From Eledone cirrhosa (taxonomy: Eukaryota): 64,000 nucleotides of DNA. Below the pieces are notes generated by a model that was given only the letters and a program-made list of their open reading frames with translations, did not search any database and was not told the origin of the DNA. The first letter of the stretch is position 1. Each line of letters opens with the position of its first letter. Positions 3,481 through 59,635 of this stretch are shown here, piece by piece. Location: positions 35,836,001 to 35,900,000 of the forward strand of contig OZ024751.1 in assembly GCA_964016885.1 (NCBI GenBank), given 5' to 3'. The position numbers were made by a program, and so were the translations under genes.

Positions 3481-3548
<68 letters not shown>

Positions 3549-3554
<6 letters not shown>

Positions 3555-3605
3555 TTCCTGATGATTTCTAAAGAATGAAACAGTTCTAGTCCTGTAGAAT
3601 CTCAT
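3549..3605 (+). ncRNA. Type I hammerhead ribozyme (family B element)
   Basis: Stem I ATGAGATTC/GAATCTCAT; CTGATGA 3558-3564; stem II TTC/GAA; GAAA 3577-3580; stem III ACAG/CTGT; GTA cleavage triplet 3594-3596. Confidence 0.9.
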
Positions 3606-3684
3606 CTATATTAAAACTTTTATACTCTGCTATGTATTGAGTACCTTACTTACTGTGGTTACCTCCGATTCAACCCGGAATAAC

Positions 3685-3685
<1 letters not shown>
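3549..3685 (+). mobile_element. HHR-bearing non-coding element, family B, inserted in (TA)n
   Basis: HHR plus tail ...ACTCTGCTATGTATTGAGTACCTTACTTACTGTGGTTACC...CCCGGAATAACG, with (TA)n on both sides. Homologs at 22062, 24400 and 50437. Confidence 0.8.
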
Positions 3686-3733
<48 letters not shown>

Positions 3734-3737
<4 letters not shown>

Positions 3738-3813
3738 AACGAGTAGGACCCCGACGGCTGAGCTCAAGCCGTTTCGACGGCTAATTCTGGACTAAAATCA
3801 TTTTAGTCCAGAA
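3734..3813 (-). mobile_element. Family A fragment carrying the 3' half of an HHR
   Basis: Minus strand reads GAAACGGC-TTGAGCTCA-GCCGTC^GGGGTCC, preceded by the hairpin TTCTGGACTAAAAT/ATTTTAGTCCAGAA. Flanked by (TA)n. Confidence 0.75.
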
Positions 3814-4797: not shown

Positions 4798-4889
4798 CAT
4801 ATTACAATCGTTTCTCTGGCGACCAGCTCGAGGCACGATCGATGTGATGTTCGAAACTGACTCTGAAAATCGCAAGGTCCTCAGATACG
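4798..4889 (-). ncRNA. Type I hammerhead ribozyme with extended stem II
   Basis: Minus strand: CGTAT-CTGAGGA-(~63 nt including GCGATT/GGTCGC)-GAAAC-GATT-GTA^ATATG. The downstream tail contains AATAAA and runs into (TA)n at ~4750. Confidence 0.65.
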
Positions 4890-8660: not shown

Positions 8661-8877
8661 AAACAAAGAAAGTGTGGCAAGATACCAGGTGGACCATAAG
8701 GCACCAGAGTACTCGATACTTTGGGTAGTAGAGTGGGTAATAGGAAAATAGTCAGGACCCCGACGGCTGAGCTCCAGCCGTTTAGGCAGCTAGATCCGAA
8801 CTAAACCAGATACTACCGCTTTAGTTCGGCTCTAGCTGTCGAAACGGCCGGAGCTCAGCCGTCGGGATCCTGACTCT

Positions 8878-8881
<4 letters not shown>
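8661..8881 (-). mobile_element. Family A element with fold-back palindrome (half HHR on both arms)
   Basis: Tail ACAAAGAAAGTGTGGCAAG...GTACTCGATAC...GTAGTAGAGTGGGTAATAGG, then inverted arms at ~8743-8805 and ~8820-8881. The right arm has GAAACGGC..GCCGTC^GGGATCC. Confidence 0.85.
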
Positions 8882-8943
<62 letters not shown>

Positions 8944-20258: not shown

Positions 20259-20400
20259 CATTTCTTACGTACCTTCTCAATTATATGTAGTTTTTCATGT
20301 TACAACTTATGGTATATAAATATTGAGTTTTGTCATAACTAATCACTGCCAAGACTGGAATTGAACCATCAGCAGAGTTGAGGTATGTCAGACATCAATT

Positions 20401-20466
20401 TATTTTATCTGATGAGGACGTACTGATGAAATAGCTCAGTACCTCTGAAATATGTATAGTAAAATA
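20401..20466 (+). ncRNA. Type I hammerhead ribozyme with minimal stem III
   Basis: TATTTTAT-CTGATGA-stem II (GTACTGA/TCAGTAC)-GAAA-T-ATGT-ATA^GTAAAATA. It lies in a segment bounded by (TA)n arrays. Confidence 0.75.
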
Positions 20467-20507
20467 TATTTGATCAATGAATGTCTATATTTATTAATAT
20501 TTTGAAG

Positions 20508-22061: not shown

Positions 22062-22240
22062 GATCCCGTGCGAAATCGGGGGTAACCACAGTTAAAAAGG
22101 TACTCAATACATTAGTAGAGTGTAAATATCACTATTTAATACAGAAACGGCTTCTACAGGACTACTGCTTCTAGTCCTGTATTATCGAGGTCTTCCTGAT
22201 GATTTAATACGAACGAAACAGTTCTAGTTTTGTTGAAGCC
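22062..22240. mobile_element. Family B element: minus-strand tail plus an inverted plus-strand HHR
   Basis: 22062-22165 is the reverse complement of the family B tail. The plus strand has GGTCTTC-CTGATGA(22196)-...-GAAAC(22215)AGTTCTAGTTTT-GTT^GAAGCC. (TA)n on both sides. Confidence 0.8.
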
Positions 22241-22458
<218 letters not shown>

Positions 22459-22547: not shown

Positions 22548-22914
22548 TGCACGTGTGTGTGTATGTATGTATGCATGTGCGTCTATGTAGGTATGTATGT
22601 ATTTCAAGTAACTAGACATTTCATTCACTTCCGTCAACAATAGAAAAGAGATTTTAGAATTTTAATATTAAACTGATTGAATGGATTTCAGTGTGCAATG
22701 ATATTAGATAAGGTACAGTTAATCTCTTGTCTAGACTAGTATTCCTCGGTGTTTCTCTTTAACAACTTCTGTTGTAACTTCTATACTGTTCAATGTGGAG
22801 TAAAATACGAGATATCACAGTGACAAGAGGCTGGTTTAGTTTGTTTGAAACGTTATTGTATAGTGTAGAAAATAGTGGTATAGTTTAAAGGCTACCACAA
22901 GGTGAATTGTAAAT

Positions 22915-23134
22915 GTTGGTTTCTGATTTAGGCACGAGGATAACAACTTTGGGTAAGGGAAAGTCGATTAAATCGACACCAGTACATTACTAGTACTTTA
23001 TTTTATCGACTCCTGTAAGGATGAAAGGCAAAGATAAACTCGGCGGGATTTGAACTCAGATCGTAATATAAGGGTGTAACCTTATGCTATAAAGCATGTT
23101 ATCCGACGCTCTACAGAAACTGCCAATCTACCGC
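22915..23134 (-). mobile_element. Near full-length Nin-domain SINE
   Basis: tRNA-like head (reverse complement GCGGTAGATTGGCAG...GAGTTCAAATCCCGCCGAG), Nin domain and tail. Confidence 0.9.
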
Positions 23135-23752
23135 ACTTATTTGGATGGTAATGACGTAGTGATATTAGCTTATATTTCTTCATAGGTCCTTATATTTCGG
23201 ATAAATTACCTTCATCAAATATAAGGACCTATAATTACTGTAAGACGACATCCAAACGTAATTGTTATTATACTTTTATAATTGTGGTAGACATGTAACA
23301 AAACACTATTTTCTAAATAAGATACTGTTTAATCCCTTGTCTAGAATTTTCTCATATCTTGTCTCCCTTATGACTGAATAATAGGTGGTAAAATATGAGA
23401 AAACATATATTTATATATTGTCCAGAGATTTACGTTCCTCAGTATATTTATCTATATTACTTAGCATCACTACTGCAGAATCTCCGATAAAATCATGTTT
23501 AGAAGTCTAGAAGAACTTCAGAAAGATACAAGGAAAATAATCAACACCAAAGGGACTAACGTTCCATGTTTGTACTACAGACACTTACACTAATATATTA
23601 AGAATATATATATAATATATAATATATATATATTATATATTATATAATATATATAATATATAATATATTAAGTTTAAAGTAAACATATAGGTAAGTGTGT
23701 ATAGGTGGAAATAAAAATATATTTTGGTCTGACTACGCACTCGTGCCGACTC

Positions 23753-23815
<63 letters not shown>

Positions 23816-23947
23816 GATAAATCTACCAAGAGTTTACGGTAGTGTCCAATCCGTATGAAGAACTCAATGTATTCCGGATATCATGGAAAGAAGAGATGTA
23901 ATGAAAAACCACTTTCGGTGAAAGATAAACGGTATACAGAGTACAAG

Positions 23948-24349
23948 ATAAAATATTAAACAAATAATGAATAAACAATTTCTTATATTAAACAAAAAAA
24001 GTTCATTATTTAACGATCGTTTCTAGGATATATATGTGTTAGAATTGGTATGCATATTTAACAGATCTATGTACAAAATTATACAAAATTATACAAATTA
24101 TCAAGATTAAATATACATACCAAACACATATATACACATATATATTATTTCTGAAGACGGCGTATATATGTGTTTGGTATGTATATTTAATCTTGATAAT
24201 TTGTATAATTTTGTATAATTTTGTACATAGATCTGTTAAATATGCATACCAATTCTAACACATATATATCCTAGAAACGATCGTTAAATAATGAACTTTT
24301 TTTGTTTAATATAAGAAATTGTTTATTCATTATTTGTTTAATATTTTAT
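23948..24349. repeat. 188-bp inverted repeat with 26-bp spacer
   Basis: 23948-24135 is the reverse complement of 24162-24349. No mismatch noticed by eye. Confidence 0.9.
24143..24293 (+). ncRNA. Type I hammerhead ribozyme with ~115-nt stem II
   Basis: TATTATTT-CTGAAGA(24151)-long hairpin (GTATATATGTGTT/AACACATATATAT; TGGTATGTATATTTAA/TTAAATATGCATACCA)-GAAAC(24274)-GATC-GTT^AAATAATG. Confidence 0.75.
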
Positions 24350-24350
24350 A

Positions 24351-24672
<322 letters not shown>

Positions 24673-31577: not shown

Positions 31578-31725
31578 GTGAAGGCGCATGGCTTAGTGGT
31601 TAGAGCATTGGACTTGCAATCGAAAGGTTGTGAGTTCAATTCTCGGACCGGGCGATGTGTTGTTTCCTTGAGCAAGACACTTTATTTCACTTTATTGCTC
31701 CAGTTTACTCAGCTGTAGAACTGAG
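31578..31725 (+). mobile_element. tRNA-derived CORE-SINE (octopus OR2-like)
   Basis: A box TGGCTTAGTGG, B box GAGTTCAATTC and CORE-like TCCTTGAGCAAGACACTTTATTTCAC...ACTCAGCTGTAGAA. Confidence 0.85.
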
Positions 31726-33809: not shown

Positions 33810-33859
33810 AAAATGTAAAATTAACTTTGTTGAATAATCGTTAAACCAAATAACTCAAT

Positions 33860-33909
<50 letters not shown>

Positions 33910-33959
33910 ATTGAGTTATTTGGTTTAACGATTATTCAACAAAGTTATTTTTACATTTA
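33810..33959. repeat. ~52-bp inverted repeat flanking a (TA)n tract
   Basis: AAATGTAAAATTAACTTTGTTGAATAATCGTTAAACCAAATAACTCAATGTT-(TA)n-its reverse complement. Confidence 0.9.
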
Positions 33960-41486: not shown

Positions 41487-41729
41487 GAAAAAGTATGACC
41501 CCGACGGGGTCATCCTTTTTCCTATTACCCACTCTACTACCCTAAGTATTGAGTACTCTGGTGCGTTATGGTCCACTTGGTTCCTTACCACGTTTACTTC
41601 CTTATATATATATATATATGTATATATACATACATGTATATATACATAACGAAGGAATTGTGGCAAGGAACCAGATGGACCATAACGCACCAGAGTACTC
41701 AATACTTAGGGTAGTAGATAGGAAAAAGT
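41487..41729. mobile_element. Two family A elements tail-to-tail around a TA-rich tract
   Basis: Plus copy at 41506-41602 and minus copy at 41648-41729. A mini fold-back TGACCCC-GAC-GGGGTCA sits at 41496-41512. Confidence 0.9.
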
Positions 41730-43481: not shown

Positions 43482-45525
43482 TTAATATAATAATACAATA
43501 TAATAATAAATTACAAAATAGTGATATAATCAAAGGTTTCTTGATAAATGTCTTTCTTTCAAGCCTAATCATGGAAGACAAAAATCTGTTGGCTGGGTCT
43601 GGTTCTTCATTCTGGCTCTGATATGAATTGCAACCCGATCCGACACAGAAAGACAACCTCTACAGGAAATACGACTACTACATTTAGAATTTATCAATTG
43701 GATTAATGGCTTTAGTCTTGGTTTAGTTTCATGGTCGACTTCACTGACATTCCGCTGGTTGGACTGAGTGAATGATAGTCAGGATTCACAGATACACACA
43801 CACAAACAAACACATACAAACACATATGCACAAACACTCACACATATACACACAGAAACGCACACCCATATACACAAGCACACACATACACAAACACACG
43901 CAAACACGCACAAACACACACGAAGTCACACATATACACACACAGACATGTGTACGAACATTCAAAAGTACACACACAAACACAAACACACATATACACA
44001 CACAAACGCACACCCATATTCACAAGCACACACACACACAGAAACACACACAAACAAGCAGAAACACACACGAAGTCATGCGTATACATATACAGACATG
44101 TGTACACACACATAAGTACACAAACACACACACACACGTATACACGCACTCGCACAAAAGTACACGGACACACACAAAGACCCACACCCACATAGAAAGA
44201 AATTCACAGACACATAGACACATACACGAACACACACATACACATTCACAAAGAATCACACCCACAAACACCAAGAAATAAAAGCACACAGAAACTCGCA
44301 TACACTCTCACACTCACACACATACACATACAAGTAAAGACATACACACACATACTCTCTCTCTCATACACTCACACACACACATACCAAGAACCCTACC
44401 AAACATAGAAACCAATATGGCTACCAGTAAATTAAAAACCTGTGAAATTACTTAATGAAACTCATTCTCTACTTTTACCACCTTTTATGATTTCTATATT
44501 TTCCCTATGTCTGTCTGTCTCTCTCTCTCTCTACCCCCCCTCGCTCTCTCTCTTTCTCTCTCTCACTATCCCTCCCCCTCTCTCTTTTTATCTTTTTCAC
44601 TGTTTGTCTCTCGCTTGATCCATTTTTCTCTCTGTCTCTCTGTATCTTTCACTGCCTGTGTGTGTCTGTCTGTCTGCCTGACTCTCTCTCTCACTTTCTC
44701 TCTCTCTTGATATATTTCTGTCTGTCTTTCTGTCTCTCGCACTATCTCACTCTCTCCGTCGATGCATTTCACTCTCTCTCTCTCTCTCTCTCTCTTGATG
44801 TCTTTCTCTATATATATATATCCCTATTTCAATCACATTTAAATCTTCGATCTTCCCCACACGTCACAGAGTAGTTCCCTCTTTACACTATACCATATCA
44901 CCATATCCTTCTTTCCTCCTATCCCCCACTCTCCCCATCTTCTCCCCCTCCTTGGTACAACTCCACCAGTTCTGCTGCGCTGGTTCTACTGATTTAAATC
45001 TCATGATTCTTGATAAGCAATAATAAGTATTAATCTAGTTATTCTTTGAATTTCTGCAGGGATTACAATCTGTAATCTCTGCTAATCTTCGCCAGACTAC
45101 ATATCGTCACGTTGGATCTAAATACCTTTTCTATAACCCACCTCCCTTTGGCGCCGAACAACCATTACATTCTTCTCTTTGCCATTTTGTTTTCAAAGCT
45201 AGTAATCTCGTTTGCTTACACTTACTCCCCCTCTCTCCCTTCTCAGTTACTAATTCCATCATCACTCACACATTTCCTCTCTCACTCCCACTCCTACTCA
45301 ATCAGTCCTTAGTCACCCATTCTCCATTCAATCACTCCCTCTTCCTCTTAATAATTACTTCCCTTCATCACTCACTCTCCACGCTTTAACTCATCACTTA
45401 CTCCCTCACTCAATCCCTCACTCAGTTCCCTAATCATTCACCCAATCCCTCACTCATTCACTCAGTCACCCCCTTACACACACACACACGCATACACACA
45501 AATATATATATATATATATATATAT

Positions 45526-45660
45526 AACGAAGGAAATGTGGTAAGGAACCAGGTGGACCATAACGCACCAAAGTACTCAATACTTGAGGTAGTAGAGTGG
45601 GTAATAGGAACCAGTAAGACCCCGACAGCTGAGCTCAGCTGTCGGGGTCTTACTGGTTCC

Positions 45661-45663
<3 letters not shown>
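45526..45663 (-). mobile_element. Family A element ending in a perfect 60-bp palindrome
   Basis: ATAGGAACCAGTAAGACCCCGACAGCTGAG|CTCAGCTGTCGGGGTCTTACTGGTTCCTAT (45604-45663), with (TA)n on both sides. Confidence 0.9.
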
Positions 45664-45691
<28 letters not shown>

Positions 45692-48897: not shown

Positions 48898-48937
<40 letters not shown>

Positions 48938-48941
<4 letters not shown>

Positions 48942-49641
48942 ATTAGAACCCTGTAACCATTAAGCTCTAAGTATAAAGTACAAATAAATACTGAGCCGAT
49001 TGTCAATATATAGTAAGAAACACAGTAAACCGTGTGTCTAAAATTACAAGGGTTGAAAAACCACATATGCTTGAAATATTTAACCAAGAAACAGACAGAA
49101 TGACAAAATGAAAATAAAAATATATTATCATAATAATACAAACCGCCTCAATAACCATTATATCTCTCGGACAGATTATCCCTAATCTGTTTCGCCCTGA
49201 GTGTGTTTGTAACAGATAATCCTGGGCTTCATCAGCGAGAGATTGCGATTAAATGCCACAAACACTATTTGCCAACGTTCACACAGAAAGATGAATTCAT
49301 CACCTCGTGCTTCGCCAGTCAAACGTGGTAAGCGCGTATTGAACAGAAATAACAGTCCAACACGCACAACTTAATAGCTCAACTTGTAAGGGAGCAGAAA
49401 TATATATATGAGAATTAGAACCCTGTAACCATTAAGCTCTAAGTATAAAGTACAAATAAATACTGAGCCGATTAACAATAGAGAGATATAATGGTTATTG
49501 AGGCGGTTTGTATTATTATGATAATATATTTTTATTTTCATTTTGTCATTCTGTCTGTTTCTTGGTTAAATATTTCAAGCATATGTGGTTTTTCAACCCT
49601 TGTAATTTTAGACACACGGTTTACTGTGTTTCTTACTATAT

Positions 49642-49645
<4 letters not shown>
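48938..49645. mobile_element. Penelope-like pseudo-LTR structure (direct plus inverted repeats) between (TA)n tracts
   Basis: 64-bp direct repeat at 48938-49001 and 49410-49473; 165-bp inverted repeat at 49004-49168 and 49481-49645; an HHR lies inside. Confidence 0.8.
49162..49243 (-). ncRNA. Type I hammerhead ribozyme, canonical
   Basis: Minus strand: ATCTCTCG-CTGATGA-A-GCCC..GGGC-GAAAC-AGATTA-GGGA-TAATCT-GTC^CGAGAGAT. Confidence 0.92.
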
Positions 49646-49731
<86 letters not shown>

Positions 49732-50436: not shown

Positions 50437-50542
50437 GTTTATCCCGGGTCCAGCCGGGGGTAACCACAGTAAGTAAAGTACTCAATACAAAGCAGAGTAT
50501 AAATATTTAATATAGAAAGGCTTCTACAGAACTAGAACTGTT
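50437..50542 (-). mobile_element. Family B element truncated within HHR stem III
   Basis: Reverse complement AACAGTTCTAGTTCTGTA^GAAGCC...GTATTGAGTAC...CCCGGGATAAAC-TA. Confidence 0.85.
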
Positions 50543-50675
50543 ACATTACATTTGCTGAAAATTTAAAGTAAGTGAGACTGTCACTACTCTAAAACAATAG
50601 CGTAAGGTCTTCAAAATGCTTTTAATTAAGCATACAGTGTATTGCAAAATACACTGTATATACATTCATATATAT

Positions 50676-50873
50676 AACGAAGGAAGTGAGGTAAGGAACC
50701 AGATGGACAATAACGCACCAGAGTACTCAATACTTTGGGTAGTAGAGTGTGTAATAGGAAAAGAGTAAGAACCCCGACGGCAGAGCTTAAGCTATGTCGA
50801 CAGGTATTTCTGAGTCCAGAAATAGCTGTCGAAACAGCATGAGCTCTGCCGTCAGGGTTCTGACTCTTTTCCT
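50676..50873 (-). mobile_element. Family A element with fold-back
   Basis: AACGAAGGAAGTGAGGTAAGGAACC... followed by inverted arms at 50755-50873 with GAAACAGC..GCCGTC^AGGGTTC. Confidence 0.85.
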
Positions 50874-50942
50874 ATATATATATATATATATATTTATCCT
50901 TATCGAGCCCTCTTTGGATTTTAGTCTTCAAATTTATTATTA

Positions 50943-58971: not shown

Positions 58972-59230
58972 ACACATACACACAAATATATACATATATA
59001 TGTATATACATGCACACAGGTACGCACTTATGCAGACACAAACACATACACACACAAACACACCTATATAGGTGTGTTTGCGTTTGCTAACGTTGATATC
59101 CCTAAAACACACACACAGATACAAAACCTGGTACCTCTTTGTCAAATAGAAACCCCTACGAGCAGTGTGGGCAATTTGATCGACTAAACCCTAGAGCAGC
59201 AGTAATGCCCAGCTCTTTCATCAGATGAAA

Positions 59231-59314
59231 ATAACTATTTCATCTGATGAACGAGGTGGGCGTTTCTGTAAGGATCGTCTAGTCTCCTGAAACCTTTGGT
59301 AATGGAATAATTAT
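59231..59314 (+). ncRNA. Type I hammerhead ribozyme
   Basis: ATAACTATTTCAT-CTGATGA(59244)-stem II (TGGGCG/CGTCTA)-GAAACC-TTT-GGTA^ATGGAATAATTAT. Confidence 0.8.
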
Positions 59315-59384
59315 ATTGTGTTGTTTATTATATAATTAAATAGGTCTGTACTATACACAGAGCACTCCTTTAACTTTTCTACGG

Positions 59385-59528: not shown

Positions 59529-59635
59529 ACAATTGTTTCACCTTAGCAGATCTTCAGCTCGCACTGGTCATGGTTAAACGTATAACCATGTCCAGTACGC
59601 GCTGAAGATCCACTAAGGTGAAACAATTGTTCTCG
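59529..59635. ncRNA. Palindromic pair of minimal hammerheads
   Basis: Plus: CGCG-CTGAAGA-TCCACTAAGGT-GAAAC-AATT-GTT^CTCG. Minus: CGAG-CTGAAGA-TCTGCTAAGGT-GAAAC-AATT-GTG. Both lie in a ~100-bp imperfect palindrome. Confidence 0.7.

Follow-up and report, generated by a model that had tools for sequence, protein, structure and literature searches.

Penelope-like elements are known to insert with an inverted, 5'-truncated copy at their 5' end, a tail of 30-40 bp at one end and a preference for (TA)n targets (PMC8557442, which lists octopus Penelope-like families; the publications cited here are drawn on in part). Head-to-head repeats with palindromes at the junction are described in PMC3846280, and 31 recently active Penelope-like families are reported from Octopus vulgaris (PMC13282606), so that a young insertion would be unsurprising if the host is an octopus. 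The ends of these elements carry minimal type I hammerheads, either single or on opposite strands 100-700 bp apart, with a palindromic helix III and low activity as dimers (PMC4209133). A Penelope-like protein cuts AT-rich DNA, extends both target strands and starts at two sites bounding the tail; the ribozyme cleaves only with protein and is dispensable for insertion (PMC11167929). Non-LTR retrozymes require complete ribozymes in tandem (bioRxiv 10.64898/2026.07.22.740005).

The locus described here lies within a 64,000-nucleotide stretch of DNA (the window). Its most probable reading, to which we give a probability of about 0.78, is that a 188-bp palindrome consists of two head-to-head ends of a high-copy repeat in (TA)n, likely a Penelope-like pseudo-LTR, with a predicted type I hammerhead whose stem II spans 116 nt. 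The palindrome itself is known biology, an ordinary by-product of a known retrotransposon class.

Table 1. Coordinates of the palindrome, its predicted ribozyme and other fold-backs in the window
Feature	Position	Strand	Remarks
(TA)n array	23760..23812	.	26.5 copies, 100% matches; likely left half of insertion target
Tail, 135 nt, left copy only	23813..23947	-	ends in 5-bp hairpin 23813-23826
Left arm, copy truncated at stem II base	23948..24135	-	hammerhead 3' half, without CTGANGA core
Tandem duplication, 10 bp	24125..24144	+	spans head-to-head junction; units 24125-24134 and 24135-24144
Spacer, 26 nt	24136..24161	+	junction bases and 5' part of right copy
Stem I, 5' strand	24143..24150	+	8 bp with 24286-24293
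Core C3-A9 (CTGAAGA)	24151..24157	+	joined to stem II arm in contigs of X5 and one loose end of X6
Stem II hairpin, 116 nt	24158..24273	+	44 predicted bp; base C.A or shifted GG-CC
Right arm	24162..24349	+	terminates at tail-less end
GAAA core, palindromic stem III (24277-24284) and GUU triplet	24274..24285	+	GAAAC-GATC-GTT starts at 24274
Alternative hairpin, predicted	24285..24336	+	sequesters cleavage site and stem I 3' strand
Stem I, 3' strand	24286..24293	+	pairs with 24143-24150
(TA)n array	24347..24405	.	likely right half of target; common to neighbouring element of another family
Fold-back	8740-8885		arms 59/66 identical
Fold-back	24400-24479		arms 36/39 identical
Fold-back	45604-45663		arms 30/30 identical
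Fold-back	50754-50875		arms 52/59 identical
Fold-back	59200-59268		arms 27/31 identical
Fold-back	59529-59630		arms 45/51 identical

Geometry of the palindrome and identity of its ends

Sequence comparison shows that the two arms, 188 nt each and 26 nt apart, are 100% reverse-complementary, exactly as described in a sequence-only reading of this DNA. Each arm holds sequence absent from the other, the tail being found only at the left and the core only at the right, and both ends of the insertion lie within (TA)n. CTGANGA is absent from the minus strand, and the left arm is indeed the antisense half-ribozyme that had been proposed, continued by its tail to (TA)n. That reading also had the spacer supply the catalytic core. 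The core does lie in the spacer, but the spacer is nothing special: it is the 5' part of the less-truncated copy, in a layout that is already published and recurs in the window. The 10-bp duplication at the junction likely reflects microhomology or slippage during joining. None of the listed pieces spans this copy's own junction, 24120-24152 having been excluded as a repeat in read mapping.

The arms show 0 differences in 188 bp, which bounds their divergence at 1.6% (95%). A recent origin, claimed earlier from this identity, is plausible on that count, but arm-to-arm gene conversion would look identical. Minority alleles are common to both arms, for example at 23981/24316 and 24059/24238, where 90-100% of the depth in run X1 differs; this indicates either one template for both arms or homogenisation.

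The putative Penelope-like membership rests on architecture, since no reverse-transcriptase ORF is linked: the repeat forms head-to-head inverted 5'-truncated copies with variable junctions, has an optional tail at one end, and is dispersed at high copy number with insertion into (TA)n microsatellites. No reverse-transcriptase or GIY-YIG ORF is present at the locus, as expected for a solo end, and Pfam gives no relevant match among 103 complex ORFs of the window, the one sub-threshold match being unrelated and elsewhere in the window. A protein search with one tail frame returned five candidates, none of them scored, and a suspected likeness of this frame to an ORF N-terminus is unsupported, with 0 protein matches for the frame searched. 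Two pattern scans of metagenome contigs gave 0 matches, as did viral contigs.

In public sequencing runs, the family shows a high copy number. Parts of it occur in 19 of the 22 listed runs, three of which contain half or more of its words (best run, 0.76 of the element's 38 words), and at least three coded organisms carry it. None of the listed runs containing the family is on record as RNA, and the nine rows with small shares (X11-X19) were left out of the family evidence. Mapping at 80% likeness in four of the 22 listed runs recovered 1,119 contigs from X1, 4,747 raw reads from X20, and 18 and 22 contigs from X5 and X6 (organisms B and C). (TA)n directly precedes 23948 in 411 X20 raw reads, which identifies the tail-less end as a family-wide end position. 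In X1 and X5, related copies have a similar tail end with (TA)n after it (loose ends before 23838), and the presence of (TA)n at both the tail-less and the tail ends points to two 3' end classes in the family. Six other head-to-head junctions are found in X1, in one contig each at a depth of 4-13, one of them starting at 24287, adjoining the predicted cleavage site.

A predicted hammerhead with a long helix II

The proposed hammerhead anatomy, with stem I and CTGAAGA in the spacer followed by a giant stem II and GAAAC-GATC-GTT, holds up, and the distance from the core to GAAA is 116 nt. Cleavage is predicted after 24285. Stem I combines seven Watson-Crick pairs with one G.U, and the 116-nt stretch folds into a 44-bp hairpin (-41.7 kcal/mol, z -7.3, equalled in stability by 0/200 shuffles). 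A type I hammerhead pattern with a stem I of at least 7 bp appears in 0 of 20,000 dinucleotide shuffles of the spacer plus right arm. The sequence carries the CUGANGA and GAAA core, an NUH triplet, a stem I of at least 5 bp and a palindromic stem/loop III capable of pairing between two copies, as in type I dimer-type ribozymes; the earlier likening to dimer-type Penelope-like hammerheads is supported by the self-duplex that folding predicts for stem III (8 bp, -10.0 kcal/mol). The cleavage triplet is GUU here and GUA in about half of the X1 depth: at 24285, A accounts for 181,149 of the 370,325 contig depth summed in that run (49%). The cleavage position is U in 10 of 25 Hydra-clade families (our count from PMC8557442 supplement S2). 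Rfam, searched at E up to 10 over 23700-24500, returns 56 matches and 0 hammerheads; its matches to microRNA families, all below the gathering score, were set aside as generic hairpin matches.

The base of stem II is unusual. In direct register it is a C.A mismatch (24158/24273) and not the canonical G10.1-C11.1; no R10.1-Y11.1 pair stands beside G12, and the GG/CC pairs leave 2 nt before G12. A U.U mismatch at the base of stem II can reportedly be tolerated (PMC3088659). The C.A base, the hairpin at 24285-24336 competing with stem I and the 10-bp junction duplication go beyond the sequence-only reading.

Poor ribozyme function is predicted for this copy, because stem II is without the usual G-C pair, stem I is sequestered, and read-through yields a 188-bp duplex. 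In folding calculations, the probability of stem I is ~0.4 in the minimal RNA (24143-24293), drops to 0.0003 when the RNA extends to 24349 because 24285-24336 forms another hairpin, and is at most 3e-11 in RNAs beginning at 24100 or upstream of it (~35 nt of left arm), in line with the earlier expectation that double-stranded RNA would compete with ribozyme folding. The full read-through duplex is predicted at -271 kcal/mol; the state keeping both local hairpins lies at -170, and GAAAC is buried even so. The locus has one complete core; a second full copy with which it could dimerise in cis is absent. Ribozyme activity appears doubtful even without the left arm, and cleavage here would depend on another RNA molecule as partner and probably on assistance from protein. 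The insertion is most probably inert, as its read-through RNA would fold into the 188-bp duplex and its minus strand is without the core.

Across the family, the 116-nt helix II apparently recurs. In X5, two pieces (24153-24203 and 24153-24198) connect the core with the stem II arm, as does a loose end before 24174 in X6 that contains stem I and the core; further, overlapping X5 pieces, 24174-24229 and 24013-24097 (which mirrors 24200-24284), extend the tiling as far as GAAAC. With no single contig running from the core to GAAAC, this continuity is tiled and not phased, so that a subfamily with a short stem II could be missed; no joint skipping stem II is listed in the four mapped runs. Asking whether homologs lack the core did not overturn the sequence-only reading, as the core and the stem II arm are connected in homologs from two other coded organisms. 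Only two variants, both permissive, are listed in the unmasked part of the core and of stems I and III. Among nine listed substitutions at paired stem II positions, six keep the pair and three break it. Counted on the sense strand in 40 of 57 rows, transitions in stem II are 7 A/G against 1 C/T (post hoc, one-sided p 0.019), which hints weakly at selection acting on the RNA. Two-sided compensation is not shown in stem II, the six pair-keeping changes all being A/G opposite U and the variants unphased.

Formation of the palindrome and other fold-backs in the window

The window is microsatellite-rich, animal-type DNA (265 tandem-repeat rows), possibly of an octopus to judge by its SINE-like repeats. 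A hammerhead-pattern descriptor scan finds 5 matches in it against 0.175 per shuffle. Six of the nine inverted structures examined are fold-backs of other hammerhead-bearing families (Table 1), with arms of 27-66 bp and, in four of the six, 87-89% arm identity. A seventh structure, at ~22064-22248, has its tail at the left and its core at the right, as in the 188-bp palindrome; with several such structures in the window, the head-to-head layout is common here.

The neighbour that shares a (TA)n array with the palindrome (24400-24549) is a head-to-head fold-back of another hammerhead family, with its junction just before GAAAC and a right-hand tail; this family has a complete copy at 3548-3686 and further copies at 22064-22248 and 50439-50547. 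The loci 8681-8885, 45520-45665, 50670-50876, 3735-3800 and 41501-41718 belong to a third family, which has a hammerhead 3' half and a palindromic loop III; its copy at 45604-45663 is a perfect 60-bp palindrome that turns at loop III. The fold-back at 59529-59630 has the CTGAAGA core and GAAAC on both strands and an 11-nt stem II region. Further hammerhead patterns occur at 59200-59330 and 20400-20470; in the one at 59244 the stem II region is 38 nt long and a short inverted copy lies upstream, and a weak one on the minus strand at 4884 (63-nt stem II region, 5-bp stem I) may be chance. Tails of different families contain the short motif TATTGAGTAC, at 3637, 20124, 22107, 24503, 33696, 41549, 41702, 45580, 50485, 50730 and, more weakly, 23867. 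Some Hydra-clade 3' ends, inspected by eye, contain a motif like it, and the shared tail motif is possibly a protein-binding or start-site signal. Other repeats of the window include a complex (TA)n insertion at 48928-49650 (81-bp direct repeat, 97.5%, plus 165-bp perfect inverted arms with a 312-nt spacer), a 73/74 bp palindrome centred on a (TA)n array at 33811-33958, and a SINE-like dispersed repeat at 22900-23140 with 14 other matches. The only Rfam match at gathering score in the window is tRNA-like (31589-31646) and is probably a SINE head.

Joining of two cDNAs could account for the 188-bp palindrome. The protein of an autonomous partner, itself not found, would nick both (TA)n strands, and two reverse transcripts would be primed from the same RNA species on opposite strands of the target; L1 'twin priming' is an analogue for such two-strand priming. 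The left copy would be cDNA from the outer start site, with the tail, and the right copy cDNA from the inner start site, without it. The left cDNA would stop at the base of the stable stem II, the right one shortly beyond stem I, and their 3' ends would be joined at a complementary 10-mer, now duplicated at 24125-24144. Identical arms with common minority alleles and a one-sided tail are what this model leads to.

The same element could also have arrived at this state by self-priming (snap-back) on an antisense template, or by a later fold-back with arm-to-arm gene conversion, and arm identity need not then mean a recent insertion. For head-to-head repeats whose junctions hold palindromes, PMC3846280 favours self-priming on an antisense template. 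At this locus the 10-mer of the junction is the complement of 24163-24172 and might snap back, and the turning point of several fold-backs in the window falls exactly within a hammerhead hairpin. One snap-back, however, cannot yield both a tail found only at the left and a core found only at the right, and we hold these routes possible though on the whole unlikely. The perfect identity of the arms also raises the question of an assembly or library artefact, either a fold-back chimera or collapsed repeat copies, as do the junction left unbridged by mapped pieces, the best word share of 0.76 and the trouble that inverted Penelope-like structures give assemblies (PMC8557442). Such an artefact is improbable, since the inversion halts exactly at the family-wide end position without including the flanks, and since the run contigs hold six other junctions and the neighbouring fold-backs have diverged arms (87-92%).

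Long perfect inverted arms, TA flanks and the absence of an ORF would also suit a MITE, or a foldback DNA transposon bearing long terminal inverted repeats, in which case the hammerhead pattern would be a passenger or chance. Fixed, symmetric terminal inverted repeats are nevertheless not what is found: the outer ends are made unequal by the 135-nt tail, and the centre differs between copies, as the six junctions show. With the 0/20,000 rate of the hammerhead pattern in shuffles and the permissive character of the two variants listed in its core and stems I and III, this origin is similarly improbable. Adoption by the host as a regulatory element, either a long double-stranded RNA serving as an editing or small-RNA substrate or a switchable ribozyme, would draw on the predicted duplex of -271 kcal/mol and on the 7 A/G against 1 C/T transitions in stem II, which would fit RNA-level pairing selection or fixed A-to-I edits in the family. 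It would be the least probable of these explanations, as no host gene context was found among the ORFs searched, similar structures occur every few kb of the window, and there is no sign of locus-specific conservation. Insertion of two Penelope-like ends remains the preferred reading.

Novelty and comparison with known systems

The new part of this locus, modest as it is, is the unusually long helix II, missed by Rfam. In supplement S2 of PMC8557442, the core and GAAA are separated by ~52 nt at most (our count), less than half of the 116 nt here; the core search of that paper allowed spacers of 7-17 nt, and 'half cores' at distances of 35-50 nt were noted in it. The literature searched, which takes in few subscription papers, gave no helix II of comparable length. 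A more ambitious and rather doubtful model is that a multi-species, high-copy Penelope-like family keeps an active, dimer-dependent hammerhead, with a 116-nt helix II under RNA selection and gated by an anti-stem I hairpin lying downstream. If true, long-helix ribozymes would escape both Rfam and descriptor searches with 7-17 nt spacers, elements reported without hammerheads or with only 'half cores' might hide them, and the stem II hairpin might be a reverse-transcription stop that seeds palindromes. Should the long-stem hammerhead cleave, the natural range of helix II would widen, standard searches would be undercounting ribozymes in Penelope-like elements, and the family would offer a high-copy system for studying the role of the ribozyme and why head-to-head repeats form. 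If transcribed, the many head-to-head repeats of this kind would be a source of long double-stranded RNA.

In architecture, the locus compares with the inverted pseudo-LTRs of EN+ Penelope-like elements (Penelope/Poseidon, Neptune, Nematis, Naiad and Hydra clades; PMC8557442, PMC3846280), with which it shares head-to-head 5'-truncated copies, a one-ended tail, (TA)n and a hammerhead near the 3' end. Unlike those elements, it has no ORF, and its tail is 135 nt long against 30-40 bp. The ribozymes of the Hydra clade (PMC8557442 supplement S1/S2, including Hydra-1_Obim) appear closest in style, with (TA)n and a short, near-palindromic stem III in common, and they often have one additional base on either side of stem II (PMC8557442). 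At ~10-25 nt, their stem II and loop are far shorter than the 116 nt of this locus. The clade itself has specific RT/EN motifs (RWK, DKT, CxCX5C). Six Hydra consensus 3' ends in PMC8557442, compared by eye, show no match to this family, and three short motifs have 0 occurrences in its supplement, where line breaks could hide matches; the likeness, judged by eye, extends to ribozyme style and target and is a lead only.

The minimal dimer-type hammerheads (PMC4209133) share with this locus the CUGANGA/GAAA core, an open stem I, a palindromic stem III, an extra nucleotide after A9 and the predicted need for a dimer. Their helix II is 6-8 bp long with a conserved G10.1-C11.1, whereas here it has 44 bp and a non-canonical base. 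Non-LTR retrozymes (bioRxiv 10.64898/2026.07.22.740005) are likewise non-coding repeats that carry a type I hammerhead, and a derivation from pseudo-LTRs is proposed for them. They are head-to-tail tandems with at least two complete ribozymes, whereas the copies here stand head to head with one core, which places the locus outside that class. The discontinuous Clec2 hammerhead (PMC6155905) is the comparison for size, being a natural hammerhead with one very long helix insert. It is, however, a type III ribozyme with an insert of 150-1500 nt in helix I, located in a host 3' UTR; here, the predicted ribozyme is of type I, its insert lies in helix II, and it is carried by a mobile repeat.
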